Notes under the pieces: generated by a model
Database searches by the model: none
Seen by the model: the letters and a program-made list of their open reading frames with translations, nothing else
Told to the model about the DNA's origin: nothing
Position numbers and translations under genes: made by a program
From: a virus
Lineage: Duplodnaviria > Caudoviricetes
DNA: 44,935 bases
Reading direction: 5' to 3' (one strand)
IMG/VR virus record: IMGVR_UViG_3300047313_000006
Coordinates: 1 to 44,935 of that record
In this document: in pieces, positions 5,767 through 40,731 of the stretch
How positions within the stretch are numbered: the first letter of the stretch is position 1
Layout of the letters: every line of letters starts with the position of its first letter

Positions 5767-5773
5767 TGGTGTT

Positions 5774-6128: not shown

Positions 6129-6154
6129 CCAAAGCCGAACCAAAGTGGAAGCAT

Positions 6155-15463: not shown

Positions 15464-16192
15464 ATGACAATGAAAACCAAACTGATTCTCGCAATCACGC
15501 TCCTGGCGGTTTCGGCCTTCGGGCAGACAGCCCTCACCTCGACTACGGTTACTAACGCCATCACGGTAAACCAAAACACATTCGCGGTGGCTTCAACCAC
15601 CGGAATGACCGCAGCCAATCCGGTTTCCAAGCTCTACATCATTGACAAGGGCGGGCAGGGCCGCGGCGAACTCGTAACGGTTACTGCGGTCAATAGCGCG
15701 ACTAGCGTTACTGTCTCGCGCGGCTCGCAGTTCCGGGCGCCCCATACGGCTCTTTCGGTAGCGGTGCTGATTAACGCGGCGCAGGCCATCCAGAGCTTTG
15801 ATCCGGTTGGGTCCTGTGTCGCCGCTAACACACTTTACACCCCCTGGATTAACCAGAACAACGGCAATCAGTGGCTTTGCAGCACCAAGACTCTGGCGTG
15901 GGTTCCGGGCTTCAATAACTTCAATGAGCCCAAACAACCAACCGCGGATGTCGCATCCGTCGCTGGGCTGACGGTCGTCACCAGTCCTCTTTTCCATGTG
16001 ACTGGCTCAAATGCCATTACCGGCTGGACCCTCCCCGCTACGTTTGTCGGCGGGACATTCTGTACCATCCCGGACGCAGCTTATACGACCACCAATGCCA
16101 CCAACATTGCTATCGCCAGCACTGCGGTGATTGGCAAACTGCTCTGCTTTACGTGGTCGTCGGCTGACACCAAGTGGTATCCGACTTACTAA
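15464..16192 (+). CDS. Beta-rich putative capsid decoration protein with a Sec signal peptide
   Basis: MKTKLILAITLLAVSAFG-Q; Thr-rich; directly after the coat gene. Confidence 0.6.
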   Translation: MTMKTKLILAITLLAVSAFGQTALTSTTVTNAITVNQNTFAVASTTGMTAANPVSKLYIIDKGGQGRGELVTVTAVNSATSVTVSRGSQFRAPHTALSVAVLINAAQAIQSFDPVGSCVAANTLYTPWINQNNGNQWLCSTKTLAWVPGFNNFNEPKQPTADVASVAGLTVVTSPLFHVTGSNAITGWTLPATFVGGTFCTIPDAAYTTTNATNIAIASTAVIGKLLCFTWSSADTKWYPTY

Positions 16193-16193
16193 C

Positions 16194-16442
16194 ATGGAAA
16201 CTGAAGCCTATACAGCATGCGTGATGTATTCCCCGGAAGGGGCTACTCGACGCGTCGAAACGTTCCAGCTTGAAAGTGCCCTTATGCAGCAGGGGTGGGC
16301 CTCAACTCCCTTCCCGCCCCTGCCTGAGCCGGCAAAACCGCAAACGATTGAGCAGAGACTTGCCGCAATCGAGGACTTGTTATCCCAGCACGACGCCATA
16401 TTGATGCAACGCCGTGGCGGCAGACCGAAGAAAGAAGAATAG
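16194..16442 (+). CDS. Hypothetical protein
   Basis: Ends RRGGRPKKEE, as seen in small genes following coat genes. Confidence 0.65.
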   Translation: METEAYTACVMYSPEGATRRVETFQLESALMQQGWASTPFPPLPEPAKPQTIEQRLAAIEDLLSQHDAILMQRRGGRPKKEE

Positions 16443-16450
16443 GAGAAAAA

Positions 16451-16909: not shown

Positions 16910-16910
16910 A

Positions 16911-18014: not shown

Positions 18015-18018
18015 AAAC

Positions 18019-18762
18019 GTGGCAATCACGTTCGGGCAGATCATCACCGACGCCCTTACCGAGATTAACGCGTTAACCCCCGGCCAGCCCGTAGATCCTG
18101 GCGATATGCAGCTCGGGCTGACTCGGGGGAATGCGTTTCTCGACGCCTCCAATGGCTCTCCGCTCATGCAGTATGTGCGGAGGCTGGACTCTTACCCGTT
18201 CGGGGTAACGAAGCAGGCCTATACCATCGGGCAAGGTCCGGGGGCGGATTTCGTCGCGGATCGGCCGACAGAGATCCTAGACGCCGCCATCGTCATGACT
18301 ACGGCGAGCCCCAACGTCTATATTCCCTTGACTCTGGTGAATTCAGACGAATGGGCCAACTTCTATGTTTTGAACTACTCAACCAGCATCCCGGCGATTA
18401 TGTGGTACGAAACCACTTATCCGAACGGGACCATGCACTTTCTAGGTACGCCGTCGCTGGCGAGCTATGAGATTCGGATTCTGACCAGCCAACAGTTAGG
18501 GCAGGCCGCGAGCTTGGCAACGCAATTCGTATTCCCTCCGGGTTATTACGACGCATTCATGTACTCGCTTGCGGAGCGTCTATGTAACCCGTTCGGCAAG
18601 ACCGGGGAGATTGCAGCGAGATTGCGGGTCCAGGCGAGAGATGCCAGAGCCGCGGTAAAGAGCGGCAACGGAGAGACTCCCAGAATAACGCTAGATGGGC
18701 TAGGGCCTATCGGAATCGGGCCGTATTACAACTGGTACAACAATACGCTGGTTTATCGGTAA
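18019..18762 (+). CDS. Head-to-tail adaptor, P22 gp4-like
   Basis: GQIITDALTEINAL...GQP and FPPGYYDAFMYSLAERL motifs; synteny. Confidence 0.8.
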   Translation: MAITFGQIITDALTEINALTPGQPVDPGDMQLGLTRGNAFLDASNGSPLMQYVRRLDSYPFGVTKQAYTIGQGPGADFVADRPTEILDAAIVMTTASPNVYIPLTLVNSDEWANFYVLNYSTSIPAIMWYETTYPNGTMHFLGTPSLASYEIRILTSQQLGQAASLATQFVFPPGYYDAFMYSLAERLCNPFGKTGEIAARLRVQARDARAAVKSGNGETPRITLDGLGPIGIGPYYNWYNNTLVYR

Positions 18763-18766
18763 AACT

Positions 18767-19096
18767 ATGAAAAAACTACTTTTGGCGCTTGCTATCCTGC
18801 TGCTGCCGATCAAGGCCGGGGACATCCATACCCGAAAGATAACGGGAACCGCAGCGACAGTGGCGCTTTCCTCGACATCATTGTCCGTCCGCTGGGTTTC
18901 CCTTAGTGCGCCGGCCGCTAATGGCGCCGATGCGCTTTATGGCGATGCTACCGCCAGCTCAAGTGTCGGGACTCCCTTGGTAAAGGCCACCAGCTTCACA
19001 TTTCCGCCCACGGCTCAAGGCGGCTATGATTTGGCGCAGATTTCGGTCTATGTGGCGATGTCCGATGTGGTTTACGTGACATGGGACACGTTCTAG
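18767..19096 (+). CDS. Small beta protein with a Sec signal peptide
   Basis: MKKLLLALAILLLPIKA-G. Confidence 0.7.
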   Translation: MKKLLLALAILLLPIKAGDIHTRKITGTAATVALSSTSLSVRWVSLSAPAANGADALYGDATASSSVGTPLVKATSFTFPPTAQGGYDLAQISVYVAMSDVVYVTWDTF

Positions 19097-19097
19097 T

Positions 19098-19565
19098 GTG
19101 CCGGATGTCTCGATGTACGACTGGCGCAACGCCGACCCGCTAGATTTTACCGCGAAGTACAACACGCCGATTCCGCCTGAAAAACAGGCTGCGTTCAATC
19201 AATGGGTAGCCCAGCAGACCAAGAAAACTGGCAAGAATCCACTTGGCGATCGTTACGATTATGATGTCAATGGCTTATTCCTTTCAGGTCAGGGGACGGA
19301 CGCGCGCGGTCACGCTACCGATCAGTTCAAAAAGCCTAATCACCCGACTTTCAGCGATGAAAGCATTTACAGCGGTAAGGACGGTTATCAGGGCGGCAAG
19401 TGGATCACTACGAACGGCGGGACGTTCTACGAGCCTTCGGTTACAAACATCCAACTTCACGGCGTCGATAAACTCAAGCAGTATTTTTCGGAAGTAGAGC
19501 CGCAAGTTCAACTCCTGGCACCTCCCATGCTCCCCAGCCAGATCCTTCAGGGAGTCATCCGCTAA
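19098..19565 (+). CDS. Conserved hypothetical phage protein
   Basis: YDYD, GHATDQFKKPNHPTFSDESIYS and GGKW motifs, recalled from phage virion-associated proteins. Confidence 0.7.
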   Translation: MPDVSMYDWRNADPLDFTAKYNTPIPPEKQAAFNQWVAQQTKKTGKNPLGDRYDYDVNGLFLSGQGTDARGHATDQFKKPNHPTFSDESIYSGKDGYQGGKWITTNGGTFYEPSVTNIQLHGVDKLKQYFSEVEPQVQLLAPPMLPSQILQGVIR

Positions 19566-21400
19566 TGCCGGAACAGCAGACCTGGGGATTCGTAGGACCG
19601 GCATACCAGACTCGCGGGCTCACCGCGGATACGCAGCGCATCGTCAACATGTTTCTGGAGAAGGTGGAGTCTCAGGCCAACTCCAGCCCGGGAAACCCCT
19701 GGCAGTACCTAATGTCGCCCGGGAAGCAGCTTTTCTGCACCTGTGCCGATACTCCGGTTGCCGCGGTAACCCCCTCTAACGCTTCGTTCTATACCGCGAC
19801 TACCAATCTGTTTTTTGTAGTTTCCGGCTCCACGCTCTACGCGATCACGGCGGTTTATAACTCTGGCACGCAACTCTGGACCGGCACCGCCACTACTATC
19901 GGGACAGTAGACAAGCAGATCATGCCGGGGACTGGAGGGCAGTTATTCCCGGCCCAAATCATTGTCATTCAGCCGAATCAGTTGTTTGTGGTGGCGAACG
20001 GAAACGCCTATGTTGCGGCTTATGGGCAGGCGATTTCGACCACGAACCCGGCCCCTACGAATGTCGGCTCCGGGTATGCGGTAGGGGACACTGGGACGAT
20101 AGACGGCGGCCTGATTCCCGGGCAGTACATCGTGACTGGGGTGAACGGCACAGGCGGCGTAACAGGGTACAACGTTACATATAATGGCACCGGATATGCG
20201 GCCACGGGCGGAGCCTCGACCACCACGCTCGCTGGCGCACAGCCGGGCAACGGTGACGGCTCCTTTACTTTAACCATTACGGCTGTAGCGGCTGTCGCTT
20301 GGCTGATCCAACAACAAGTAATCCCGGAGTTTAGCGTCGGAAACTTCATTCGTTCTGCCACCTTCATGGACGGTTACATTATCGTCTCGATGGCGCCGAA
20401 TGCCGCGGACCCGCTGCGCCGGCAGTTCTTTATTTCCGGGCTGAACGATCCCACGACCTGGAGTGCTCTTGATTTCGACACCAAGGAAGCGAACTCGGAT
20501 CCGGTTATGGCGGTATTCGCGGCTTACGAAATCCTGATCGTGTTTGGTTCCCAAACTATCGAGCTCTGGCAGGACTCGCCCAACGCGGCGACAGGGAGCG
20601 CGTTTCAACGGCTTCCGGGTGGGGGGGTGATCGAAAACGGGCTGGCATCCACGTGGGCGGTATCAAAGATGGACGGGACGGTGGTATGGCTCGGCTCCGA
20701 TGCGCGCGGCCAGTATGTCGCATGGCAGCTTCGCGGGACGGTCCCGGTCAGGATCTCTAGCCATGCGATTGAGAACACCTGGAGCCTGTACGATGTGGCC
20801 GGCGCGAGCTCCTACAGCTACGTCGAAAACGGTCACTTCTTCTGGGTGATCCATTTCCCAATTCCCGATAAGACGTGGGTTTACGATTCCTCGATTGGTC
20901 CGCAGATCGGCTGGCATGAGCGGGCCTCGGTGGATTCATCGAACAATTTGCATGCTGATATTGGGCGCTATCACGGCTTTTTCCCAGAGATCGGTCATTG
21001 CGTTGGCGATTACCAGACCGGGAACCTGTATCTTCAGTCCATGCAGTTCCTTCAAGAGAACTGTACCGGCATTCCAAGGATCAGAATCTCGCCCCACATT
21101 GCAACAGGCCTGAACTGGAACTACTTCAATGAGTACGTGTTGCACTTCCTCTGTGGGTTTGTTCCACCGTCGGGCGCCGGGAGCGCTCCGGTCTGTAATC
21201 TCGAAATCTCCAACGATGGCGGCATCACTTACGGGTCACTTCTGCCGCAGAATCTAGGCGGGACCGGTCAGTACAAGTGGGACGTCCGCTGGAGACGCAT
21301 GGGGCGCACCAGAAACCGTGTGATTCGTTGGACGATGAATGAGCCGATTGATATGGTCCTGGTGGATCTTTACGCCGCAGTCGAGGGGGGATCGGGATGA
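19565..21400 (+). CDS. Tail hub / DNA stabilization protein, P22 gp10-like
   Basis: FMDGY, VFGSQTIELWQD, RISSHAIE, TWVYD...WHER, SNDGGITY and WRRMGRTRNRV motifs. Confidence 0.9.
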   Translation: MPEQQTWGFVGPAYQTRGLTADTQRIVNMFLEKVESQANSSPGNPWQYLMSPGKQLFCTCADTPVAAVTPSNASFYTATTNLFFVVSGSTLYAITAVYNSGTQLWTGTATTIGTVDKQIMPGTGGQLFPAQIIVIQPNQLFVVANGNAYVAAYGQAISTTNPAPTNVGSGYAVGDTGTIDGGLIPGQYIVTGVNGTGGVTGYNVTYNGTGYAATGGASTTTLAGAQPGNGDGSFTLTITAVAAVAWLIQQQVIPEFSVGNFIRSATFMDGYIIVSMAPNAADPLRRQFFISGLNDPTTWSALDFDTKEANSDPVMAVFAAYEILIVFGSQTIELWQDSPNAATGSAFQRLPGGGVIENGLASTWAVSKMDGTVVWLGSDARGQYVAWQLRGTVPVRISSHAIENTWSLYDVAGASSYSYVENGHFFWVIHFPIPDKTWVYDSSIGPQIGWHERASVDSSNNLHADIGRYHGFFPEIGHCVGDYQTGNLYLQSMQFLQENCTGIPRIRISPHIATGLNWNYFNEYVLHFLCGFVPPSGAGSAPVCNLEISNDGGITYGSLLPQNLGGTGQYKWDVRWRRMGRTRNRVIRWTMNEPIDMVLVDLYAAVEGGSG

Positions 21401-21603: not shown

Positions 21604-21622
21604 ACATTGTATACTTTTACGC

Positions 21623-21895: not shown

Positions 21896-22592
21896 CTTTT
21901 CCGCTCGCGTCGGCATCCCTGGATGCCTCACCATCGAGATCCAAGCCGTCCCGCAAGTCCGGCAGCAACAAATCGTCAATCTGGTAGCGCAACTAAGCCA
22001 GCCGATTACCGATCAATTCATCAGCAACGCCTGGGGGAAGGGCTGGGCCACGCCGCTCACTCAAAAGGTCGTGGCGCTCGGCGGGAACACCGGCTATGAG
22101 CTGCTCATCTTCGAGTGCCCTTCTCTGGACACCACCGATATGGCCTGGGGCGCACAGGGAACGATTGACGGGACCTCGGACCCTGTTAGTCTAACGGCCC
22201 CCATCTTCGGCACCAGCAACTACGGCAGAGTGTTTGCCGCGGGCGATTACATCATCTGGAACGACCCGACCGTGGTAAACGGACGCTATAGCTATGAAAT
22301 CGATCAGATCCAGAGTGTATCTGGGAATAACTTCACCCTGAAGCGCCGGCCGGCACGCGGCGGCGGGGCGCAATTCGGAAGCCCCATGCTTCCCCATGCT
22401 AATGTCCAGTTCTTTCAGTTGATCGACAAGACCTTTCCAGTGCTTTGGATGGGCGAATGGCAGGTTTTCAAGTTCTTGTGGGATAACACTATTCTGGCCG
22501 CGGTGAGCGCGACGGCCGCGGGGGTTGATCCGTCGATTGTGAACCTCTCGCCAATCCCGCCGGCGTTTGCGGTTCCGGGGTTGCAGATATGA
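21876..22592 (+). CDS. Putative tail-associated protein
   Basis: 238-aa beta-rich ORF in the tail module. Confidence 0.6.
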   Translation: MPSPALSFSARVGIPGCLTIEIQAVPQVRQQQIVNLVAQLSQPITDQFISNAWGKGWATPLTQKVVALGGNTGYELLIFECPSLDTTDMAWGAQGTIDGTSDPVSLTAPIFGTSNYGRVFAAGDYIIWNDPTVVNGRYSYEIDQIQSVSGNNFTLKRRPARGGGAQFGSPMLPHANVQFFQLIDKTFPVLWMGEWQVFKFLWDNTILAAVSATAAGVDPSIVNLSPIPPAFAVPGLQI

Positions 22593-24541
22593 GAAATGCG
22601 GTATTGCGGTATTGCGGTATTGCGGTATTTGCGGGAAGTTTGAATGCGACATCCAAAAAGCTCTCCCGTTATGTCGCCTCACGGGCAGCCTATAGTTCCC
22701 GGCGGTCTAGGCGGGAGAATGAGTCATCACCTCGGTTCTGGGTCATAATAACATTCTTTTTGGCTATGTCGGCTTTCGCCCAGAATCAGCGTACAACCGG
22801 GACAATCATGGTCTGGGCCGCGCCCTCTGGCGTGTGCCTTGCCAATTCCCCGATGGAATACTATTCAGCCGGTAATCAGTATTGGGGCTGCGTGCTCCCT
22901 GCGATCACGTCATTGACGGGAACCTGGACGCAGATTACCGGGGGTGGGGGTGGAAGCGGGACAGTTACCAGCGCGGGATTCGCTACCAATCTCGGCACCG
23001 TCAGCGGCTCCCCGATCACCGTCTCGGGAACGATTACGAACACCGTAGCAGCGGCCGATGTCGTAGGTCTGTTCTCTGCTTGCTCCGGGGTTCAATACCT
23101 CGGGGCAGACGGAGCCTGCCATACTCCGTCCGGCGGCGCGACGATTCCGAACACGACGAACATCATCAAAGGCGATGGAGCGGGCAATGGAGCCGATTCC
23201 GGCTATGTGGCCCAGAACGCTAGCACATCATTAACGGGTTTCCTCACATCGACAGATTGGAATACGTTCAATGGAAAAGGTTCCGTCAGTTCCGTAGCAA
23301 CTGGCTGCGGCGCTTCTGGTGGAACGATTACAACCACAGGCACAATCCTGGGGATCGGGGACTGCGTCACTATCGCCAATGAAACCGGGACCGGCACAAC
23401 CACGAATAAACTGGTGAAGCTCACCGGAGCGCCATCGAAGGTCATCATCACCAGTACTGGCGACACCACGGGCATTATCGGCGTCTGTGATTCTGCCTGC
23501 GGAAACTCCGGCAGCGCCGTGATTCAGCAATCTGGCCTGCACATCACCACAGTGGATGGGGGCGGGTCTACAGCGGGACATTGGGCGCAGCCCAGCACGA
23601 GCATTGCCGGGGATACGATGGATTCCGGCGTAGCGTCCACCTCCGCACCTCCAGCGGGGTCCATCGGCATCTATCTTCAGACATTCGGCGGACTGAGTAC
23701 CGTAGTCACGGACCTAATCAACAATTTGGCAGGGGCCACTAACGCAGGGACGGTCACTCATACCGGAGCGCTCTCTGCCGATGAGCCAGTATTCGGAAAC
23801 GGAACAGACGACATCAAAGTAGGAACCAAATCCGGCAACACGAATGAAGTCGGGACCGTTAGCGGAGCTCTGGTTTCCGGGAACTGCATCACCGTCGATA
23901 CGGGCGGTAATTTTGTGGATTCTACCATCCCCTGCGGGGGAGGTGGTGGTGGCGGCGGGGGTGGTGGAGGCGGGGGCGGGAACATCGTCCCGGCAAACTG
24001 GACCACGCTTGGCGCGACATCGACACGCACCGACAACAGCAACAGCGTCAGGATTGTAGCTGCCTCATCCGGCACGAATAAAATCGACGGCGTTTATCAC
24101 ACAGTGAGCGCTGGTAACTTCACTATATTCCTGGGTTTCATCGCGGCGGTTCCAGCGGGCGCTAGCGGACCTCCGGCAATCTTGGCGGGCTTCACAGATG
24201 GGACCAACACGGAGGGATTAGGGATAGATTCCCAAACTGGAGCGACGATTCAGCGCGGCCTGAAGGATGACGCTATTTCAGGCGGAACTACGGCCGCAGC
24301 CAACGGGATCATTTCCGGAACCTGCACTTGCGCTCCAGTGAACAACCCGGTTTTTATCAAACTCACGCGCGTCGGAACCGCGCTCTCCGCTTGGATGAGT
24401 TTGGACAACGGCATCAGCTACACTCAGTATTTCAATGACACCGCTCCATTCATGACGGCGACAGCAGTCGCAGTCTACATCCAAAGCCGCAGCTCTACCG
24501 ATCAAGAGAGTTTTACGCTCACTTCGAGCTCTTTGCCATGA
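22589..24541 (+). CDS. Tail fibre-like / adhesin protein with extended signal peptide, Gly linkers and a C-terminal lectin-like beta-sandwich
   Basis: FWVIITFFLAMSAFA-Q; GGGGSGTVTS and GFLTSTDWNTFNGK fibre motifs; Gly15 linker; IKLTRVGTALSAWMSLDNG is ConA-like. Confidence 0.7.
   Translation: MRNAVLRYCGIAVFAGSLNATSKKLSRYVASRAAYSSRRSRRENESSPRFWVIITFFLAMSAFAQNQRTTGTIMVWAAPSGVCLANSPMEYYSAGNQYWGCVLPAITSLTGTWTQITGGGGGSGTVTSAGFATNLGTVSGSPITVSGTITNTVAAADVVGLFSACSGVQYLGADGACHTPSGGATIPNTTNIIKGDGAGNGADSGYVAQNASTSLTGFLTSTDWNTFNGKGSVSSVATGCGASGGTITTTGTILGIGDCVTIANETGTGTTTNKLVKLTGAPSKVIITSTGDTTGIIGVCDSACGNSGSAVIQQSGLHITTVDGGGSTAGHWAQPSTSIAGDTMDSGVASTSAPPAGSIGIYLQTFGGLSTVVTDLINNLAGATNAGTVTHTGALSADEPVFGNGTDDIKVGTKSGNTNEVGTVSGALVSGNCITVDTGGNFVDSTIPCGGGGGGGGGGGGGGGNIVPANWTTLGATSTRTDNSNSVRIVAASSGTNKIDGVYHTVSAGNFTIFLGFIAAVPAGASGPPAILAGFTDGTNTEGLGIDSQTGATIQRGLKDDAISGGTTAAANGIISGTCTCAPVNNPVFIKLTRVGTALSAWMSLDNGISYTQYFNDTAPFMTATAVAVYIQSRSSTDQESFTLTSSSLP
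22597..22628 (+). repeat. Tandem repeat (TGCGGTAT)x4
   Basis: Four exact 8-bp units followed by a partial unit. Confidence 0.95.
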
Positions 24542-24726: not shown

Positions 24727-25996
24727 AGCCACTAGCGCGGATATTGCCCTTATCGGCACTGCTGGGGATGTCTGGCGGCCGATTTTCAACGGCTCCAATA
24801 TTTACGCGATTGGCAAGAATCTCATCATCTCCAGCGGAGTTTCGCATCTCCGCATGTTCAAGAGCACCGACAACGGGGCCACTTGGACCGCGCAGGACAC
24901 TGCTAGCGAACCGATCATCACTGGAAGTATCAACAATCCGCAAAAGATCGCTGGCTCCAAAATTGGCATCGTCTATATCAAATCCGGTGCTACAGGAATG
25001 GTGTTCCGCAAGTTCAACATGACTACGGACCTGTGGGAAGCCGAAAGCCCACAGAGCACCGAGCTCCCGAACTTCACGGACTGGAGGGAGCTTAGTTCCG
25101 GCGACATCATTGCTGTCTATCAGAAGCAGTTTGGTGGCCCTTATTCGGTTCATCTAGATACCTATAACGGCGTAGCTTGGGCTGGTCCGACGACCGTAGT
25201 AACGGCAGCGACGGAACGCATTTTCCTGAGTATGGCGGTGGATACCGCCGATAATACCTACATCGCCACGCTCGAAAAGGGCGCATCGCTTCCGCACTCT
25301 GAAAACGTCCGTATTTACGCTTCTGGTGTCGTCGGCGCACCCACCACGATGGCCACTTATAACAATCCGCAGATTCAGTGGGGGCCGGGAATTTACATTG
25401 CAACCAGCGATGAAATCCGATTCCCATTCATCTTGCGGGGCGAAGCGGTATCGGGATTTTCGAGCCCTGGCTACTGGAGTGGGACGCCTTCCGCGGCTCC
25501 GGTTTGGACGCTAGTAGACTTGGCTCTCACTAATGGCGACCCCGGCCCATTCAGTGAAGTCAATTTCACATTTGAGAACGATAACGATATTTTCATCTCC
25601 TGGGCCACCGAAATCGACTCGATGACGGGCCAGGTACAGATTCTCTACGCGCGCCAGCAGAGTTTAGGCGCGTGGGGGCCTGCGATTGTCCTATGGGATT
25701 CGCTGGCCGATCCACTTTCCCCACCCTCTGCTTTTCCCGGCGATGTGGATTTTCTCGGTACAGCGGTAGATGCGACATCCAGCCAGCTCGGAAGCGTGCT
25801 GGCTCTGTATCAAGACTTCCCCATCATCGGCGGATTCTGCGGTGTTCTGTATTATCTGGCGACTCCCTTAACGCCGGCGCCGCTCACTCTCGACTGCCCA
25901 TCCGGAGGCACCACCGCCACGGTAGGAGTTTTCTACGATGAGTTCCTACAAGTCACCGGTGGCACACCGCCATATTTCTTCGAGATCATCCCATGA
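24704..25996 (+). CDS. Beta-propeller (Asp-box/BNR) protein ending in half of a putative Ig domain
   Basis: Asp-box KSTDNGATWT; C-terminal ATVGVFYDEFLQVTGGTPPYFFEII; AAGGA RBS. Confidence 0.65.
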   Translation: MPTPAVIEATSADIALIGTAGDVWRPIFNGSNIYAIGKNLIISSGVSHLRMFKSTDNGATWTAQDTASEPIITGSINNPQKIAGSKIGIVYIKSGATGMVFRKFNMTTDLWEAESPQSTELPNFTDWRELSSGDIIAVYQKQFGGPYSVHLDTYNGVAWAGPTTVVTAATERIFLSMAVDTADNTYIATLEKGASLPHSENVRIYASGVVGAPTTMATYNNPQIQWGPGIYIATSDEIRFPFILRGEAVSGFSSPGYWSGTPSAAPVWTLVDLALTNGDPGPFSEVNFTFENDNDIFISWATEIDSMTGQVQILYARQQSLGAWGPAIVLWDSLADPLSPPSAFPGDVDFLGTAVDATSSQLGSVLALYQDFPIIGGFCGVLYYLATPLTPAPLTLDCPSGGTTATVGVFYDEFLQVTGGTPPYFFEIIP

Positions 25997-26646: not shown

Positions 26647-26695
26647 AAAGAGGCCTATTGGTTGTATACTCTTACGCAAAGGTACATTTTATAGT

Positions 26696-29969: not shown

Positions 29970-31270
29970 CGCCGAACGAATGGGGAGATCATGCGGCTAA
30001 TGATTGGGGCGACATGCCTGCGCCTGCGGGGGCATCGCAGAAGCCGGGCGTTATGGAGCGCGCAATTTCCAACATTCCGCGCAGCGCGCTGAACGCGATT
30101 ACACACCCGACGTTTCCGGGAATGCCTACGGATGAAAACATCCCCGCAGGCCAAGAGCCTCGCGATGTATTTGAGGCAAATAAGCAGAGCACCATCAAGG
30201 GGCTTCAGGATCTTTGGAAACACCCGATAGATACGGTCGTCAATTATGTCAAGGAAAAATTTGCCACCGATCCAGTAGGCACTGCCCTAGCGGTTGCGGC
30301 ACTCAGCAAGCCTGCTGTTGCGCCAGCTATTAGCAAAGTGGTAGGTCCAACCGTGGAACGCGCCGGAACCGCAGTATCCGAAGGCCTCATGAAGTCCGCG
30401 CTGAAGCCTGGGGTAGCCGATGCCCCTACTCTCGCGGATGTTCGTGCTGCTACCAAAACAGCGCTAGCGAACGAGATCCCGGTTACTGAAGCCGGGGCCG
30501 CCAAACTCTCGGACCTCATCTCCGATTATGGGAAGAAAACCAAAGCCGTAATAGACGCCCGCACCGCCCAAGGCGCAACAGTTGACCCGCAGGCAGTAGC
30601 TTCCCGGTTGAATGACGTGAGCACCGTTAGCGCTCTCCCGGAGAAAGCCACCGCTGCCATAAACAAGGCGCGTGACGCGTTCTTGGCACGTAAGGGTGTG
30701 CGCCCCGGACAGCCCGCGTATGAACTCAATGGTGTTGAGATACGTCCAGCCGTTCCAGCGAGCCCCGGCGAACCGATTCCGCTAGATGTTGCCCAGGCCG
30801 AAAAGCAAGGCAGCTATCAGAACGCCAAGAATTCCTACGGAGAATTGAGTGAAGCGCAGATCGAAGCCGAAAAAGCCCTTGCGCGCGGCTACAAAGAGGA
30901 AATTGAAAAGCAAGCGCCGGAACTGAAAGCGCTTAACGCGAAGGAATCTGAGTTTTTAGGGCTCCAGCCATCACTAGAACGTGCTATTCGACGGGCCGGC
31001 AACCAGGATGTAACCGATTTCAAGAGCCTAGCGAGTGGCGGGGCTGGAATGGCGGCTGCGGGTCCAGTAGGGGCTGTGGCGGGGCTTACTACGCGCATCC
31101 TGGATTTCCCCGGCATAAAATCCAAGCTCGCAATTGCCATCAATAAAGCGTCGCAGCGCACCGGGACGCCTTTGAACCTAACGCAGAGCAATATGAGGGC
31201 AGCGAAGATCCTTAGTCAGATCGCCGTAAGCGCCCAATTACCACCCAGCGGAACAGGAGCCGAGCAATGA
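29966..31270 (+). CDS. DNA ejection / internal virion protein (gp16 position)
   Basis: WGD repeats at the N-terminus; Ala-rich with a Gly-rich hydrophobic patch; synteny. Confidence 0.65.
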   Translation: MTPNEWGDHAANDWGDMPAPAGASQKPGVMERAISNIPRSALNAITHPTFPGMPTDENIPAGQEPRDVFEANKQSTIKGLQDLWKHPIDTVVNYVKEKFATDPVGTALAVAALSKPAVAPAISKVVGPTVERAGTAVSEGLMKSALKPGVADAPTLADVRAATKTALANEIPVTEAGAAKLSDLISDYGKKTKAVIDARTAQGATVDPQAVASRLNDVSTVSALPEKATAAINKARDAFLARKGVRPGQPAYELNGVEIRPAVPASPGEPIPLDVAQAEKQGSYQNAKNSYGELSEAQIEAEKALARGYKEEIEKQAPELKALNAKESEFLGLQPSLERAIRRAGNQDVTDFKSLASGGAGMAAAGPVGAVAGLTTRILDFPGIKSKLAIAINKASQRTGTPLNLTQSNMRAAKILSQIAVSAQLPPSGTGAEQ

Positions 31271-32487
31271 ACGGCAGCGAAGCCAGAAAGAAATCTTTGC
31301 TCTCAAGGCCGCGTTCAGCGGAAGCGCCACCCCAGATGCAGGCGGTAGCCCAGAACATCGAAAGCAGGAACCAGACCCGCGCCCACATGCCGAAAATATA
31401 TCACATTCTGCTGATTGTTGGCCTGGCGCTCCCAGCCTTCGCCCAAAAAGCCGCCATGCCGAATATCTGGACCCAACTCGGGGACTCGCTTGGCGCTCCA
31501 TGCGCCGGCTGCTTCCTCTATCAGTTTGCAGCAGGTGGAACGATGCCGCAGAATACCTACACCACACCAAGCGGGGGAGTCGCCAACAATAACCCGCTGC
31601 AACTCGACGCGGCCGGCCAAGCGAATATCTGGCTGACTCCCGGGCAAACGTACCGTTTCGACCTCTACAGCGCAACCAATACGCTTATCAGAACGGTGGA
31701 CAATATTCCAGGAGGTACGCTTCTAGGGCAATCCACCGTTACCGCCAATTACGTGCTAGCTGGCCCGGCAACTGGAGCCGCGGCAACCCCGACATTCCGG
31801 GCGCTAGTGGCGGCTGACTTCGCGGCGCTATTCAGCGCTACGACCTGCACCAACCAAGCAATAACAGCGCTCACGACCTCACTGGTAGGAACATGCTCGA
31901 CACTGACGGGGTCTTACTTCGGCTCCAGCATCGCCGCGCGTTCGGCTTTAGTGCGGGCTGCTGCATCGACTGGCGCCTCGGCTTTCGGGACCACGATAGA
32001 CGCGCTGGCTTATCAAATAGCCGAGATCCCCTCATTCGTATTCGTCAGCACCGATTTCACGACCAGCGGAGTCGGGACGGCGCTGGAACTCATCACGGGG
32101 TTGTCTTTCACGATCCCAGCGAGTACGGCGTTAAATGTTCCGTTTGCTTGTTACTTCACTTACTCTCAGGCAGTCGCCAATGACGCGGTAGCGTTCGGGA
32201 TTCAAGACGTGACAGTAAGCCCAACTAACATTGCGGCGCGCGGCGACATCCGAACGAGCACAACGGCTTCCACGGCGGGGAATCTGGCGACACTCACGAC
32301 GACCACCGCAACGGCAATCGTGAGCGCAACGCCGGGAGCAACTGCCACCAATTACATGGCTGAGATTTCTGGATTCATCGAAGCTCCCAGCAATGCATCC
32401 TCCAGCCAAATCAGAATCATGGTCTCGACAGCGACCGCGGCGGACCTCGTAACGATTCGTCGCGGTTCGCACTGCAGGATGAATTAA
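31267..32487 (+). CDS. Tailspike/tail fibre with podoviral attachment domain preceded by a signal peptide (alternative start 31387)
   Basis: ILLIVGLALPAFA-Q, then DSLGAPCAGCFLYQFAAGGTMPQNTYT...NNNPLQLDAAGQANIWL...RTVDNI; PTFRALVAADF fibre motif; gp9 slot. Confidence 0.8.
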   Translation: MNGSEARKKSLLSRPRSAEAPPQMQAVAQNIESRNQTRAHMPKIYHILLIVGLALPAFAQKAAMPNIWTQLGDSLGAPCAGCFLYQFAAGGTMPQNTYTTPSGGVANNNPLQLDAAGQANIWLTPGQTYRFDLYSATNTLIRTVDNIPGGTLLGQSTVTANYVLAGPATGAAATPTFRALVAADFAALFSATTCTNQAITALTTSLVGTCSTLTGSYFGSSIAARSALVRAAASTGASAFGTTIDALAYQIAEIPSFVFVSTDFTTSGVGTALELITGLSFTIPASTALNVPFACYFTYSQAVANDAVAFGIQDVTVSPTNIAARGDIRTSTTASTAGNLATLTTTTATAIVSATPGATATNYMAEISGFIEAPSNASSSQIRIMVSTATAADLVTIRRGSHCRMN

Positions 32488-32488
32488 C

Positions 32489-32791
32489 ATGGCAAACCAC
32501 GGACCCGGCTATACCGATACCATCACGGTTTCTTCCGTCGCGGCTACTGCCGTCACGGCGCAGACGCAATGCAACCGCATCACGGTTGGGGAAGATCCTT
32601 CCGTTACGAATTGGCCAACTGAAAACTACAAGGTGCTGAAGCCGTTTTCCAACAGCAACCCGCGCGAGGTTCCGATTGGGGCGACTTATACTTTCGAGCG
32701 GAAAGGCGTTTACTATCCCGGCGACATCGCGGGATACGTGCAGGGGGTGACCGGCAGCACCACATTCTTTCAGGATGAGCAAATGGTATGA
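32489..32791 (+). CDS. Hypothetical small beta protein
   Basis: Clean ORF in the fibre cluster. Confidence 0.65.
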   Translation: MANHGPGYTDTITVSSVAATAVTAQTQCNRITVGEDPSVTNWPTENYKVLKPFSNSNPREVPIGATYTFERKGVYYPGDIAGYVQGVTGSTTFFQDEQMV

Positions 32792-34014
32792 GGGATCTTC
32801 AATTCTACACTCGCGAAGCGAAGCGCTGTGTGCCGTATCTGAGCCCGGAGGATCAACTTGCGTGGGCTGAGCATGCTCTTGAAACGCATCCCGGATTCGG
32901 ATCGCTTCCCCAGCCGGAATCGGCAGCGCAGCCAGTTATTGAGGCTCCGATTGCCGCAGCGCCGATTGTAGAATCTCCTGATCCAGTATCTTATCCGCCG
33001 GCTCCTGCTACCCAGCCGCAGAAATTCGGCTTTGTGGACTGGTGGCGGATTGCGGTTCTGATTCTTCTGCTGGCTCTCTGCGTTATCAATGCCCGCGCGC
33101 AAGATCCGGCGAGCCAGGGCATCATCCTGGGCTTTCAGCAGAGCGGGACCACTCTGGCGCAGCGGGGAACCGGCATAGCGCGCCTGAACTGCTCCACGGG
33201 GATGACATGTAGCTGGACCGCCGCAACGAATACATTCACTCTTACATCCACCGGAGGTGGTGGGGGCGGTTCTCCCTGCGGCGCCCTCGGAGAATTACAG
33301 ACCTATGCGACCTCATCCACATTCGGCTGCGGGAATCTATTCTATGACGGATCGCAGTATTATATTTTCGGAACCAATGACTTCTCAGGCACTGCGCCGG
33401 CGTTAGGATTCGCCGCTAACCAGTTTTCGGTAAACATCAACCAATCGCTCAACAGCCAGTTGGTTGCGCTTGCATTTAGCGCTGGAGGAGCTTTTGGGGC
33501 TGATCTCAATTCTGTTTCTATCCTGGTAGAAGCACAGGCTGATTCCATTACAAAGTATTTTGATTCTCAGATGAATTTCGGCGCTGTATCGGGAGATGGG
33601 TCTACATCCGCCTTGCCATACACTATGGGCGCTGAAGGTCATTGTGCGACCGTAAACTCCTGCGTCAAGGGCACGCTCACGGATTACGATTTTTTCCTCA
33701 TCAATGGCGTCACGGGCGAAACACTTCTTCAGAACACAAGCGCTTCCGCTCACCAGTTGTCAGTCCCCGCTGTTACGCAATTCGCTACACTTGGCAACTA
33801 TGTGGCGGTGGGGCCGATCATATCAAACGATACTACTGGTTCTAATCCGCTATATCTGTCAAAGAATGCGATAGCAGATGCCGCTCCGGGTGCTGGGTAC
33901 GTTACCTTCAAGGCCGTGGCCGGCACAAATTCTGGGACTTGCAAGATCGTCATGAAGGCTGGGACGAGCGCGACTCCAGTAACGCTGGTGGACAACGTGG
34001 GGTCGGGATGCTGA
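32788..34014 (+). CDS. Fibre-like protein with a Pro-rich N-region and an internal signal/TM segment
   Basis: WWRIAVLILLLALCVINARA-Q; Gly linker; paired Cys residues. Confidence 0.65.
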   Translation: MRDLQFYTREAKRCVPYLSPEDQLAWAEHALETHPGFGSLPQPESAAQPVIEAPIAAAPIVESPDPVSYPPAPATQPQKFGFVDWWRIAVLILLLALCVINARAQDPASQGIILGFQQSGTTLAQRGTGIARLNCSTGMTCSWTAATNTFTLTSTGGGGGGSPCGALGELQTYATSSTFGCGNLFYDGSQYYIFGTNDFSGTAPALGFAANQFSVNINQSLNSQLVALAFSAGGAFGADLNSVSILVEAQADSITKYFDSQMNFGAVSGDGSTSALPYTMGAEGHCATVNSCVKGTLTDYDFFLINGVTGETLLQNTSASAHQLSVPAVTQFATLGNYVAVGPIISNDTTGSNPLYLSKNAIADAAPGAGYVTFKAVAGTNSGTCKIVMKAGTSATPVTLVDNVGSGC

Positions 34015-34196
34015 TACGATTTGCTGCGATTCTGATTGCCGTTGCGCTTCAGGCCGAGGATGCGCCGAAACCAAACCCAGAGCAGGAGATTGCGGAACTG
34101 AAAGCCGAGATCAGGATTTATCAACAAAACCTAGGCCAGTGCCTAGGCGTTCAGATTCACGAACAGGCGCAGAAGCAGGCGCAGAAGGCCAAATGA
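34008..34196 (+). CDS. Small secreted coiled-coil protein
   Basis: MLIRFAAILIAVALQA-E followed by heptad repeats. Confidence 0.55.
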   Translation: MLIRFAAILIAVALQAEDAPKPNPEQEIAELKAEIRIYQQNLGQCLGVQIHEQAQKQAQKAK

Positions 34197-35686
34197 GATT
34201 CCTTCTGTTCCTTCTCGCGTTGCCGCTTCTCGCGCAAGTCCCCGCCGTCAATAGCGGGACGGCCACCTATCCGAGTAGCGGGGCAATACCAAGCTCGACT
34301 ACCGCTACCGCGCTAGCAAACGGGACTACGGTCACCACTCAATCGCAAAACGACAATTCAACAAAGCCCGCTAGTACCGCCTATACAGATACGGCAGTTG
34401 CCAATGCAGTATCTGGCGTCAACCCGGCAGTGGCAGTGCTCGCCGCGTCAACGGCATCACTCACCGGGACTTATAATAATGGAACTGCGGGGGTTGGGGC
34501 ATTTTTCACGGTGACAGCGACCGGGGCCTTTACGCTCGACGGAATTTCCATTGGCACGGTGGGCCAGCGCGTTCTCTTGAAGGATCAATCATCGGGGTTC
34601 CAAAACGGGATCTATACGGCCACAGTCGTCGGGAGCGTGGGGGTGTCTCCGATCTTCACTCGCGCTCTCGACTACAATTCGCCAAGCAATATCAATTCGA
34701 CCGGAGCGATTCCAGTACAAAGCGGGACAGTGAATGCGCTTACGTCCTGGCTTCTCACTTCTACAGTAACCACAGTCGGAACCGATGCTCTGACTTACTC
34801 TCGGTTTTCCGTAAATCCGGCGGGGATAACTCCTGTGGCGAACGGCGGCTGGGGGTTGGCTACACTGACGGCCCATGCCTTGTACGCCGGCAACGCAACC
34901 ACCGCGCCGACTGCGGTTGGCCCAGATGCCAGCACTACTAAGGCGCTATTCTCTGCCGGAAGTTCGGCTGATCCGGCGTTTCGTGCGATTGCATCCGCTG
35001 ATTTGCCAGCGACGGTAGTACGAACCGATCAGACGAACACCTATTCGACCGGCGCGCAGGATATGGGAAGTGCGACCTCTCACAAGGTCCCTACTTCCGC
35101 TGGCGCTGCACCGTCCGCGAGTGGCCAAGTTGCCGTGGATAGCACACGAGGAACATTTAAGGTTTACGATGACCTTCTGGCTACATCTAACCCGCTTGAA
35201 ACCGTTCCAAGCATCCAACTTGGATCTAGTGACACATTGGTTTGCAGTACGATTGGCGCGACCACTCCAACGAACTTCGCCACGACCTATACCATCCCGG
35301 CAAACACGCTGATTGCGAATAAGGGGTTCAAGGTCAGTGTGGCGTTCCAAGTTACAGGTCAAGGTACCCCCACTTTTACGTTTGACATGCTCCTAGGAAC
35401 GACGGTGGTTTTTACTGGCCCATCTGCCTCTGTAAATTTCACAAGTACAGGCATAGGGGCTATATTTCTTGTACAAGGAACTGCGGCAGCAGGAGCTTCC
35501 GTCAATGTCAATACTGGCCTAATCGGGTCTGGGCAATTAGGGATATTGGTTAGAAACACCATCGCCCAACCCGTCGCCGTTGCCACTAATGCAAATAAAG
35601 CAGTGACGTTTCGGCTTACCTGCTCAACGAACACTGCTGGAAACTCGGTAACTCTTGAGCAACTCATGGTGGAGTCAGTCAACTAG
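34193..35686 (+). CDS. Tail fibre protein with a Sec signal peptide
   Basis: MRFLLFLLALPLLA-Q; NDNSTKPASTAY, GQRVLLKDQSSGFQNGIY...FTRALD, PVANGGWG and PAFRAIASADLP fibre motifs. Confidence 0.8.
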   Translation: MRFLLFLLALPLLAQVPAVNSGTATYPSSGAIPSSTTATALANGTTVTTQSQNDNSTKPASTAYTDTAVANAVSGVNPAVAVLAASTASLTGTYNNGTAGVGAFFTVTATGAFTLDGISIGTVGQRVLLKDQSSGFQNGIYTATVVGSVGVSPIFTRALDYNSPSNINSTGAIPVQSGTVNALTSWLLTSTVTTVGTDALTYSRFSVNPAGITPVANGGWGLATLTAHALYAGNATTAPTAVGPDASTTKALFSAGSSADPAFRAIASADLPATVVRTDQTNTYSTGAQDMGSATSHKVPTSAGAAPSASGQVAVDSTRGTFKVYDDLLATSNPLETVPSIQLGSSDTLVCSTIGATTPTNFATTYTIPANTLIANKGFKVSVAFQVTGQGTPTFTFDMLLGTTVVFTGPSASVNFTSTGIGAIFLVQGTAAAGASVNVNTGLIGSGQLGILVRNTIAQPVAVATNANKAVTFRLTCSTNTAGNSVTLEQLMVESVN

Positions 35687-35947
35687 ATGGCGCGTCCCCG
35701 AATATTTACGGCTGAGGAAAGATTGGAGCGTAAGCGCGCCCAACAGCGCCGATGGGTGAACAACAAGCGCAGACGGCGCGCGCGGGATCGTGAACGCCGC
35801 AGAGAAGAACGCGCTTTGATGCAGGCGGAAATGGCGCGCTATCGGGTTCGTGAGATTCTATCCGCGCCCACGGGCTTGTATGCAGGTCAGTTCCCGATCT
35901 TCACCTTCGCCCTTCAGGACACATTGAGGTTCGTGCGGAGCCTATGA
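35687..35947 (+). CDS. Arg-rich small protein, possibly nucleic-acid binding
   Basis: MARPRIFTAEERLERKR...; fills the gap between two genes exactly. Confidence 0.5.
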   Translation: MARPRIFTAEERLERKRAQQRRWVNNKRRRRARDRERRREERALMQAEMARYRVREILSAPTGLYAGQFPIFTFALQDTLRFVRSL

Positions 35948-38094
35948 CGGCAGATAACAAACGGATTGTATCTTGCAGCCTATGGTGCTTAGCCGCTATT
36001 CCTTGGTCTTTTGTTGTTGCAGCCATACTCTTTATTCTGTTTGGATCTGTCTCATTCGGGCAATGCACCACGCTTCCTAGCGGCTGGTGCAACACGGGAC
36101 TGTCCGCAATCCAAAACAATCTGATCGGTCCGCTGATCCCTTACGGCGCTAACCCGTGGGTCTACGGCGACTTGGCCGATAAGGGCACCGTCGATTATTT
36201 CGTCCCGATTGCGCTTTCGGAAGCCCCGCAGCTTGGAGCAGCGCTCGCCGGCACCTTCTCTTATACGCAGGGCAGTGATACCATCAACACCACGGTTGAC
36301 CAGACCGCGGCACTCTCCGGCGTTGCATACGTCACGATGGCTTGGCAGTCGGTAGACGGGCCGCAGTCAGGTCGCATGATCGTGCCGATTTCCAGCGTTA
36401 CATCGAGCACGATTGTCGCCAGTGAACACTTCTCCGTTCCTTCCTTTTCTGGGGTATCAGGCTTCAAGATGTCCCTGGTGCCCGACTCCTACGGCTGCAA
36501 TTTCACATGCTGGACGGTCGAGAATCCGACTACCTCCTGGAACTATTACGATGTGACGATAGCGCTGTACCGCCTGTACTATCGAACCGGGGACGTGCGG
36601 TACCGGACGTGGGCGCGGCAGTTTGCAGAAATCCAGTGGCAATGGGTTATTGATCATGGCTACCGCACTCTCAGCCCGCGCGCTTCTGCGATGCTGTCTC
36701 AGTTTTTTAGGGCAGGGGAAACTACCGCGGTGCGGTTCCCTGGACTTTACAACTGGGTGTCGATCACGGTCCCATCGTGGGGATTCAATGCCGATCTGCG
36801 AGAGTCCGGATACACGCTGTGGGCCATCGCAGACGGCGCTAAGACAGACACGGACGCCACGCGGCACACGCAGTATTGTTCCTGGCTCAACACTTACGGG
36901 ACCTATTGGGTGGGCCAGCAGAACTCAGATGGATCGTGGAGCGAGAATGAATTTTCCCTGAACTCCAGCTATGTATCGGCTCCCAAGACATTCACCGCGC
37001 CGTTTCAGTACCAGGGCGCTCCCTGGCGCGAGGCTATCAACATCAAGGCATTCGAGGCGGTTTACGAATCTGCACATGATGCCACAGCGCAAGGCTGCAA
37101 CCTGCCCACGCTAGCGACATTGGCGCTCAATGCCGTCACCAAGGCCGTAACGTGGCAGAATAACTATGGGCGCGACACATCGAATCGAGGAGTCTACTAT
37201 GAAGTCAACAGCCAGTCGAACGACCAAGCGACCGTGGCTGGAGCTGGGACGGTAGCAATCGCTAACGGCTCTACTGCGCTAGTTGGCACTGGGACCAACT
37301 TCCTTACGCACTGTACCGCAAATCCGTTTGCTGGGTTGGTGACGCCGCGGACGGTATACAAGTTCGCCTCTTGCTCTGACGATACCCATGCGGTTCTTAC
37401 GGTCGCATACGGCCTATATGGAGAGGTTGGGAATCTTAGCGGGAGTTCGATAGCCTACGCGCCAGCAGCCTCTAGCGTCTGCAATTCCAGCGCCACGTAC
37501 TGTTTTGACGGGACCGGAGATCGCAACCTTACCCGAACCAACTGCGGCGGCATCGGATGGCTGTACTCCGTCACCCTGATCGCAACCTATAAGACCTGGG
37601 CCGATGAGTGCTACTCGGCATCGCTTGGCGGACCAACGGCAGGGCTGACAAGTGCGGCCAACTTGAACTCAATAACACTCCCATGCTCTGGCCCTGCTTG
37701 TGATGGGCTGGTAACAGATACGGTGTCGAGCGCGGAGAACTGTAACGATACAACCCCGGTGAACACGCCGCCCTGCTTGTTTGGAGTCTCATTCGGAAAG
37801 TTGGGAAAGGATTACGGTGAGGCGTTTGGAGCGCCCGGGATTGATAACGAGCTTGCTTGGCGCTTGCTGACTAGTCCGATACCGCCAATCCCGCCCACGG
37901 TGACATGTGCTCCAGCGAGCCATAATGTGCCGCCGACTTTGCCTATCGCTATAGACGTGCAAATGCAAACAAATATGGGGCTGGGGTTGGTAGCTTGTAC
38001 CAATAGCCTCACACTCACCGGAACCTGCACTATAACCGATACTCAGCGGGTCATCAATGCTGCGCTGGGGCAAGGTTGCCACATCGGACCATGA
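35944..38094 (+). CDS. Large secreted Cys-rich protein with a probable alpha/alpha-toroid core and a C-terminal dockerin-like module
   Basis: AILFILFGSVSFG-Q; NYYDVTIALYRLYYRTGDVRYRTWAR; C-terminal IDVQMQTNMGLGLVACT...TDTQRVINAALGQGC. Confidence 0.65.
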   Translation: MTADNKRIVSCSLWCLAAIPWSFVVAAILFILFGSVSFGQCTTLPSGWCNTGLSAIQNNLIGPLIPYGANPWVYGDLADKGTVDYFVPIALSEAPQLGAALAGTFSYTQGSDTINTTVDQTAALSGVAYVTMAWQSVDGPQSGRMIVPISSVTSSTIVASEHFSVPSFSGVSGFKMSLVPDSYGCNFTCWTVENPTTSWNYYDVTIALYRLYYRTGDVRYRTWARQFAEIQWQWVIDHGYRTLSPRASAMLSQFFRAGETTAVRFPGLYNWVSITVPSWGFNADLRESGYTLWAIADGAKTDTDATRHTQYCSWLNTYGTYWVGQQNSDGSWSENEFSLNSSYVSAPKTFTAPFQYQGAPWREAINIKAFEAVYESAHDATAQGCNLPTLATLALNAVTKAVTWQNNYGRDTSNRGVYYEVNSQSNDQATVAGAGTVAIANGSTALVGTGTNFLTHCTANPFAGLVTPRTVYKFASCSDDTHAVLTVAYGLYGEVGNLSGSSIAYAPAASSVCNSSATYCFDGTGDRNLTRTNCGGIGWLYSVTLIATYKTWADECYSASLGGPTAGLTSAANLNSITLPCSGPACDGLVTDTVSSAENCNDTTPVNTPPCLFGVSFGKLGKDYGEAFGAPGIDNELAWRLLTSPIPPIPPTVTCAPASHNVPPTLPIAIDVQMQTNMGLGLVACTNSLTLTGTCTITDTQRVINAALGQGCHIGP

Positions 38095-38306
38095 AATACG
38101 ACAGACCAAACGCAGGCGATTGGATCGAACCTAAGCGCAGGAATGGCTATAAGATGGCCTGCTGCGATTGCGGGCTGGTCCATGTGATAAACTTCCGCAT
38201 CGTCAATCCGAAGTGGAAGAAAATCCAGTTTCAAGTCTTCCGAGATAATCGCGCTACCGCTTCCATGCGGCGGAATGATGCCAAGAAAAAGAGGAGAGAA
38301 CCATGA
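38091..38306 (+). CDS. Small Zn-binding conserved phage protein
   Basis: YKMACCDCGLVH motif; ATGA overlaps at both ends. Confidence 0.65.
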   Translation: MKYDRPNAGDWIEPKRRNGYKMACCDCGLVHVINFRIVNPKWKKIQFQVFRDNRATASMRRNDAKKKRREP

Positions 38307-38968
38307 AAATACTGCTATCGCTTTTGCTCTCGCTGCCGCTGATCGGGCAGAATATCGGCCTCAATTGCCCCGTAAGCGTGAGGGCTGGGAACCCCCTCAG
38401 CGTCACGACTTCGCTCACAAATTCGCAGGGCTCGGTGGGCTTGCAGTATACCGTTACTGCCCCTTCCGCGCTAGGCGCTTTCACGGTGACTTCTACCGGC
38501 AGTGCGAGCTCGGCGTTCAAGGCCGTCTATCTCGCCGGATTCTCGCTCATTCAGGCCGGCGCCGGACCTCCGCCCCCAGGTCAACCGCTCAACGCTTCGA
38601 TGATCTCGGACGGCCCTATTTCTACGATTACCTGGCCAGTCGTCCCGGCGGGGTTGGGGAATCAGAACGTAACCATTAGCATCGCGGGCGGCGCGGTCCC
38701 TCCTCTCGCTACCTCGGCCACTGGTCAACCCATTGCGGTGACTGCGGGCCCTACGTGTGCCGTGTCCGTATTACCAAGCATTAGCCTTTGTGATGTTAAT
38801 GGGGACGGCGTAACAGATCAACTCGATGTCAACGCTCAACGCTCTATGGTGCTGACCCTCCCGCAAGTCTCGGCTTGTGCGCGTAACAGTTCCGGCTGCA
38901 ATGTCACGGCGGTGCAGATCGTGATTAACGCAGCGATGCCCGGGGGAGTCTGTACGGCGACTCAATAA
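38303..38968 (+). CDS. Secreted protein with a cohesin-like and a dockerin-like domain
   Basis: MKILLSLLLSLPLIG-Q; VGLQYT...LNASMISDGPISTITW; CDVNGDGVTDQLDV...CNVTAVQIVINAAMPGGVC. Confidence 0.7.
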   Translation: MKILLSLLLSLPLIGQNIGLNCPVSVRAGNPLSVTTSLTNSQGSVGLQYTVTAPSALGAFTVTSTGSASSAFKAVYLAGFSLIQAGAGPPPPGQPLNASMISDGPISTITWPVVPAGLGNQNVTISIAGGAVPPLATSATGQPIAVTAGPTCAVSVLPSISLCDVNGDGVTDQLDVNAQRSMVLTLPQVSACARNSSGCNVTAVQIVINAAMPGGVCTATQ

Positions 38969-40390: not shown

Positions 40391-40391
40391 A

Positions 40392-40724: not shown

Positions 40725-40731
40725 GTAATGA

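Follow-up and report, generated by a model that had tools for sequence, protein, structure and literature searches.

Can a tailed phage export its spikes and decoration proteins and attach them to the particle last? The accepted view is that virions of tailed phages are put together entirely in the cytoplasm, a reducing environment, and the question is raised by IMGVR_UViG_3300047313_000006, a single contig of 44,935 nt that we analysed over its full length (hereafter, the window). Nine open reading frames (ORFs) in its virion region, starting at 15464, 18767, 22589, 31267, 32788, 34008, 34193, 35944 and 38303, contain segments that resemble Sec signal peptides. The reading we consider probable is that these proteins are exported by Sec, fold with disulfides in the periplasm and attach at or after lysis. 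The main evidence lies in four features of the sequences: signals are confined to appendage-type genes, the cleavage site is conserved, paired cysteines (Cys) are linked to the signal, and a virion-binding domain stands behind one of the signals. From these features we infer the actual export and virion binding of the signal-bearing proteins.

The first 100 bases of the contig recur at position 44808, indicating that the contig is a complete circular phage genome. A P22-type portal, coat and scaffold are all present together with a gp10-type tail hub and ejection genes; by gene content, this is a complete P22-like podophage, a phage with a short tail. Its coat protein is only about 30% identical to the closest cultured ones.

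Signals were called with a home-made tripartite heuristic (n-region, hydrophobic core and cleavage site) that is subject to false positives and misses. All nine segments listed in a preliminary description of this DNA were present, with a best 10-residue hydropathy of 2.4 to 3.7, small residues at -3 and -1, and Gln at +1 in seven. Six are plain N-terminal signals (15464, 18767, 34008, 34193, 38303 and, given a start at ATG 31387, 31267), and three lie behind long leaders, with predicted cleavage after 39 (35944), 64 (22589) and 104 residues (32788). The hallmarks of Sec export and signal peptidase I cleavage (a basic n-region, a hydrophobic core, small -3/-1 residues and no lipobox Cys) were clearest in six of the nine, and no further membrane-like segment was found in the mature part of any of these proteins. 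Shuffled mature segments passed the heuristic in 4 of 1800 cases, and none of 34 other window genes passed, these being a hand-picked set with two starts corrected that was not scored blind. Among 58 window ORFs, a terminase ORF and the small hydrophobic ORFs 21397, 40190 and 40353 were flagged as well; the heuristic missed 32788 and picked different sites in 22589 and 35944. The terminase signal was rejected as false, being read from TTG 7958 in an upstream extension of the real start at 8048.

Signal-less coat, gp4-like, gp10-like and ejection genes are interleaved with the nine, just as the preliminary description had it. Its statement that most mature parts carry paired Cys held for seven proteins, whose counts are even and non-zero (Table 1), and did not hold for 18767, with none, or 34008, with one.

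The protein encoded by 15464, which we call the post-coat protein, had 373 homologues. Among the 120 listed, 111 passed the heuristic and one more had a visible signal; all 112 of these contained 2, 4, 6 or 8 Cys, always an even number. The remaining eight had neither signal nor Cys and began at the residue matching mature position +1 or +2. In a 103-row alignment, Gln occupied the +1 cleavage column in 95 of 95 signal-bearing rows, with Gly, Ala or Ser at -1. Cys patterns in that alignment were CCCC (79 rows), CC-- (13), --CC (2) and -CCC (1), and ---- in all eight signal-less rows. This pairwise disappearance points to predicted disulfides C118-C139 and C200-C228. Across 83 viral loci, some of them redundant, the post-coat gene was recovered in 81 and lay directly behind the coat gene in 77; 13 of the 81 carried a signal-less form, 12 of them without Cys.

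In an AlphaFold model of the post-coat protein (pLDDT 93), residues 21-106 resembled the barrels of 9n71 (Z 11.3, rmsd (root-mean-square deviation) 1.8, 78 aligned), 9in6 (Z 10.8) and 8jov (Z 10.1), which are phage tail-tube, capsid and portal-tail entries; the C-domain was barely covered. Foldseek returned partial matches only, searches of the Atlas led to unnamed viral clusters and, below threshold, to PF26209, and the profile had no match in the cultured-phage collection. Given its gene position behind the coat gene and its barrel fold, the protein is likely a capsid decoration or cement protein, with predicted capsid binding.

Virion attachment is well supported by homology for the tailspike or fibre encoded by 31267. 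The domain right after its cleavage site matched the tailspike head-binding domain of PDB entry 7eeq (E 9e-6 as a single sequence, 8e-13 as a profile) and also the tail spike of 9vyg, and the same two entries hold the best matches of the gp10 hub profile of the window. Cultured phages annotate the matching domain as tail spike or fibre. In other podophages the domain begins at residue 2-10, and 81 of 82 domain matches from 80 other viral loci had no signal. Among the top 150 representatives found with a profile that held the signal columns, and so favours signal-bearing rows, 116 passed the signal test, 103 of them with Gln at +1. Ten of twelve close homologues retrieved had both a signal and a CxxC motif, and two had neither. 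No second, signal-less copy of the head-binding domain was found in the window, and mature 31267 had no Pfam match that would indicate a beta-helix depolymerase body. The start at ATG 31387 is favoured by the orthologue G404_43 and by P0123, P0129, P0131 and P0132, all of which begin directly at the signal. The weakest signal case is 22589, in which an in-frame ATG at 22766 would yield a signal-less protein.

The remaining proteins are more varied. The long leader of 32788 was kept in all five homologues seen (P0285-P0288 and L043:196-1305) and is for that reason real. Tail-fibre motifs had been described in several of the nine. In 34193, mature residues 78-167 match annotated tail fibres (E 4e-4), and in 22589, residues 210-374 match the head-binding tailspike G422_27 through shared repeats (E 3e-25); 38303 looks like a host-type cohesin-dockerin protein. 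Virion attachment is supported by position and fold for 15464 and weakly, as fibre-like proteins, for 34193 and 22589. No match to 22589 was found among cultured phages, and no homologue of 34008 in the fetched loci. A mixture of exported appendages and non-virion accessory proteins within the nine is likely, and 18767, 34008 and 38303 may be exported helpers instead of virion parts. Remodelling of the host surface, the alternative named in the preliminary description, may hold for some of the nine.

The confinement of signals to appendage-type genes extended beyond the window. None of the 110 core virion genes recognised in 17 related records passed the signal test, as against 12 of the 17 post-coat genes and 6 of the 10 head-binding ones; each record held one to seven passing genes of at least 100 amino acids (aa), and records with a signal-less post-coat gene still held other signal-bearing genes. 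Signal-bearing genes numbered 123 of 949 in the family loci (anchor gene included); the corresponding figures for two sets of outgroup viral loci, whose head-binding domain is signal-less, were 8 of 825 and 14 of 604. An even Cys count, a bias that marks disulfide bonding, was found in 111 of 123 signal-bearing proteins and 325 of 768 others clustered at 70% identity, a set that includes a few false positives and related proteins. The difference remained among proteins with at least two Cys (111 of 122 versus 325 of 602), and 58 of 70 signal-bearing proteins had even counts once the post-coat family was set aside.

Post-coat relatives occurred in three cellular records: two metagenome-assembled genomes (MAGs), one from Terriglobia and one from Bryobacterales, and a contig of 4.8 kb that bears the label Nevskia soli. 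From these records, the host is probably a soil member of the Acidobacteriota. One family member (L085, in G002) lies in the assembly labelled Nevskia soli, which would fit a broader range of hosts or else a mistake in binning or labelling. Of 401 genomes sampled from the phylum of G003, only G003 itself contained a full post-coat match, and weak matches numbered four, suggesting that lysogens are rare among those searched; proviruses do occur within the family (G425, L084). When the signal test was run without favouring Gln, this residue stood at +1 in 21 of 54 proteins from phages and in 8 of 23 from two host-candidate genomes (L295-L314; G001, G003), and by this similarity the phage signals look host-like. 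A glutaminyl cyclase gene is full in G001 and partial in G003, and a Q-rule, in which Gln follows the cleavage site, is possible in Acidobacteriota.

Similar signals are encoded by cultured phages. PMC11924767 describes five Acidobacteriota phages; the Tunturi phages, which infect Tunturiibacter, form clear plaques. In Tunturi 1 (PP887698), which is lytic, gp12, 13, 14, 16 and 17 passed the signal test and sit in the tail block; gp12, 13, 14 and 17 have 20, 10, 20 and 32 Cys. Tunturi 4 (PP885687) gp113-114 and Tunturi 5 (PP885688) gp337-342 also passed, the large ones with even Cys counts, and none of 21 other Tunturi 4 ORFs tested did. Several of the passing genes are annotated as tail spike or tail fibre. 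Tunturi 1, 4 and 5 thus resemble the window in having tail spike, fibre or virion structural genes with signals, mostly +1 Gln and even Cys, and differ from it in not being P22-like relatives: 30 Tunturi 1 ORFs gave no BLAST match to window proteins. A possible head-binding domain at the Tunturi 1 gp12 N-terminus was too weak to count (E 0.12 and 0.29). The main text of PMC11924767 mentions neither signal peptides nor virion mass spectrometry.

How might such a phage be built? A signal-less core, made of portal, coat, tail hub and ejection proteins, would form in the cytoplasm and be filled with DNA there, and the tail spike, fibre-like proteins and predicted decoration protein would be exported by the host Sec pathway. 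Signal peptidase would cleave these appendages, the +1 Gln would be converted to pyroglutamate, and disulfides would form in the periplasm. The appendages would dock on the particle in the lysate or once holin has breached the inner membrane; the gain may be appendages stabilised by disulfides for life in soil. In P22 and phage L, the tailspike and Dec, respectively, can join particles that are already complete, and the signal-bearing parts of the window would accordingly be those that can be added last. The endolysin has no signal, so a holin is likely required. The preliminary description had proposed export of fibre and decoration proteins to gain disulfides, with attachment at lysis; homologues that start at the cleavage site, the paired loss of Cys and the even-Cys bias favour the export and the disulfides, and attachment at or after lysis is the step that we infer.

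Several observations weigh against export followed by late attachment. The heuristic yields false positives and misses, and the Fisher tests count related proteins as independent. A post-coat tree built with Cys masked placed the true signal-less rows in three positions (a clade of 11 and two single rows), implying about three signal-loss events and not thirteen; an independent-pairs test of signal loss against Cys loss was not significant, three rows scored as signal-less were visible misses of the heuristic, and two signal-less rows retained Cys (two in one, one in the other). The post-coat fold match is limited to residues 21-106, a common barrel, and the post-coat profile found no match among PDB sequences. 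With no Cys and one Cys, respectively, 18767 and 34008 would gain nothing from disulfides, and 38303 looks like bacterial secreted cohesin-dockerin proteins. Three genome records underlie the host assignment, and one of them carries the label Nevskia. None of 28 Tunturi 3 ORFs tested had a signal, indicating that the trait is not required to infect Acidobacteriota.

Some of these points would suit proteins that are exported and never join the virion: accessory proteins, descended from virion parts, that would work at the host surface or as free enzymes, in receptor masking, superinfection exclusion or removal of extracellular polysaccharide so that progeny are freed. The bacterial look-alikes of 38303, the variation of post-tailspike genes between genomes, the proviruses in the family and the signal-less fibre candidates also present in the window (16911, 24704) speak for this account. 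We nevertheless judge it unlikely, given the intact head-binding domain behind the signal in more than 100 divergent representatives and the lack of a second copy in the window, the conserved position of a post-coat slot that switches between signal-bearing and signal-less forms, and the tail-block location of such genes in Tunturi 1.

The conserved long leaders of the 32788 family, which with their cytoplasmic domain resemble signal anchors, raise another alternative. The proteins could be tethered in the inner membrane or periplasm and picked up by particles crossing the envelope before bulk lysis, through membrane-associated maturation or slow release, which would also agree with the failure to find a spanin or lipobox ORF in the window. 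This seems to us quite improbable, in view of the signal-less endolysin and holin candidates in the genome, the clear plaques of the Tunturi phages (PMC11924767) and mature parts that have no membrane anchor. Finally, that the segments are not working signals, with translation starting downstream or the hydrophobic stretch being a structural part of a cytoplasmic protein, could be argued from ATG 22766 within the 22589 signal, from GTG 33034 and from the false terminase signal, and is very improbable given that signal length and sequence vary freely around a fixed -3/-1/+1 pattern, that signal-less homologues start at the cleavage site, that Cys parity tracks the signal and that shuffled segments so rarely pass.

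Table 1. Features of the window, with the matches or position on which each label is based.
Feature	Position	Strand	Matches and basis	Signal and cysteines
Terminase large subunit	8048..9358	+	PF04466 E 1e-24	no signal
P22-like portal	10732..12969	+	PF16510 E 2e-104	no signal
Scaffolding protein	13087..14160	+	phrog_8865 E 4e-31	no signal
P22-like coat protein	14195..15442	+	PF11651 E 2e-14	no signal
Post-coat protein, predicted capsid decoration/cement	15464..16192	+		signal 15464-15523; mature N-terminal Gln; 4 mature Cys
Probable gp4-like adaptor	18019..18762	+	label by position; phrog_12985 E 9e-18, family without known function	no signal
Small beta protein	18767..19096	+	signal kept in L003, L004 homologues	signal; 92-aa mature part, no Cys
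gp10-like tail hub	19565..21400	+	phrog_578; profile matches 9vyg_M E 5e-65, 7eeq_1 E 2e-58, P22 gp10	no signal
Fibre-like protein	22589..24541	+	start uncertain	signal cut after nt 22780, preceded by long basic leader; 12 mature Cys
Cohesin-like and Ig domain protein	25993..26646	+	PF00963 E 0.002 (below cut-off), PF05345 E 2e-7	no signal
Three probable ejection proteins	27250..31270	+	first, phrog_598 DNA ejection E 2e-18; other two by position	no signal, no Cys
Tailspike/fibre	31267..32487	+	likely start ATG 31387	signal, cut after nt 31443, then head-binding domain; 6 mature Cys
Fibre-like protein	32788..34014	+		104-aa leader (small N-domain, Pro/Ala linker, hydrophobic segment, ARA before the cut and Q after it); 8 mature Cys
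Coiled-coil-like peptide	34008..34196	+		signal, then 46 aa; 1 Cys
Fibre-like protein	34193..35686	+	three unnamed PHROGs	signal; 2 mature Cys
677-aa protein	35944..38094	+	weak hints of sugar-enzyme barrel and dockerin-like C-terminus	signal; 20 Cys
Cohesin-like and dockerin-like protein	38303..38968	+		signal; 6 Cys
Endolysin (cell wall hydrolase)	39011..39427	+	PF07486 E 2e-10, phrog_938	no signal
Three small hydrophobic ORFs, putative holin candidates	40190..40989	+	sequence; no Pfam match

Among the signal-bearing genes, the basic leader at the start of 22589 contains a short tandem repeat of about four 8-9 base units (22596-22630), and the cleaved leader of 32788 (32788-33099) would remain in the inner membrane with its N-terminal domain facing the cytoplasm. 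Small basic ORFs at 35687-35947 and 38076-38306 lie between signal-bearing genes and are translationally coupled to them via ATGA overlaps. For 35944, a PF07221 match fell below the cut-off (E 0.016), and its C-terminus matched 38303 pairwise (E 4e-4). For 38303, ESM Atlas features gave 0.96 to Dockerin_1 clusters, the structure gave TM 0.56 to cohesin, and the Pfam Dockerin_1 match was below the cut-off (E 0.036). One phage thus encodes a signal-less cohesin-like protein (25993-26646) and two signal-bearing proteins with dockerin-like ends (35944-38094 and 38303-38968), a trio that could be a plug-and-socket pair or host-derived cargo.

Elsewhere in the window, two DNA methyltransferases and a radical SAM protein are encoded upstream of the terminase genes (3471-7352). 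Between the post-coat gene and the adaptor, the window encodes a beta-rich protein without a signal and then a small acidic one (16911-18014). The pair, retained in L003 but exchanged for other genes in L002 and L004, could be a cytoplasmic fibre and its chaperone. The gp4-like adaptor occurs as two to four tandem paralogues in several relatives (L008 / G406, G407, G412). No tRNA genes were found in the window, and no integrase among the 50 window ORFs scanned.

If export with late attachment is correct, virion assembly is tied to lysis and disulfide-rich, host-type modules can serve as phage appendages; annotation pipelines that read a signal peptide as 'not structural' would then mis-annotate host-range genes in phages of a dominant soil phylum. 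The cultured Tunturi phage-host pairs, with the trait shared by Tunturi 1, 4 and 5, make it testable. More broadly, we lean towards the view that lysis would be the last assembly step for a large group of soil Acidobacteriota tailed phages: naked, non-infectious cores would be built inside the cell, and spikes, fibres and capsid cement, exported by Sec, capped by pyroglutamate and locked by disulfides, would form a kit in the periplasm. Slots would switch between cytoplasmic and exported forms, appendages free in a lysate could be exchanged between co-infecting phages, and, with little support, the signal-less cohesin-like protein might act as a socket for exported dockerin-bearing parts.

In line with the preliminary description, no report of a tailed phage exporting its virion proteins turned up in the literature searched, which consisted mostly of papers open without subscription. 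The nearest relatives by homology are the P22-like podophages (7eeq, which we take to be cyanophage Pam1; 9vyg/9vyh; P22 gp10, 8tvr; and phages related through their coat and held in culture, such as DSL-LC05, P26218, VvAW1 and PBR31), which have homologous coat, portal, gp10 hub and head-binding domain and share with the window the gene order terminase-portal-scaffold-coat-adaptor-gp10-ejection-tailspike. To our knowledge, all virion proteins of P22-like podophages are made without export signals and assembly is wholly cytoplasmic. In the window, unlike these phages, the head-binding domain of 31267 and the post-coat protein 15464 carry conserved, predicted cleavable signals and paired Cys.

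Late proteins of tailed phages do use Sec in the case of exported endolysins (fOg44 Lys44 and the SAR endolysins), some of which are regulated by disulfides (PMC6116005); these are lysis enzymes and not virion parts, whereas the window endolysin has no signal. The preference for Gln at +1 has its parallel in the Q-rule for signal peptidase I substrates, described as Bacteroidetes-specific in PMC5837995, whose main text mentions neither Acidobacteria nor phage. The window signals likewise favour +1 Gln, and glutaminyl cyclase is encoded in the Acidobacteriota host-candidate genomes.

For virion proteins as such, the nearest analogue known to us is pIII of the filamentous phages (Inoviridae). 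There, pIII and pVIII are made with a Sec signal, and the receptor-binding protein is disulfide-bonded in the periplasm. The filamentous proteins stay anchored in the membrane and are added during non-lytic extrusion, whereas the predicted mature parts in the window have no anchor and would belong to a tailed particle whose genome encodes an endolysin.

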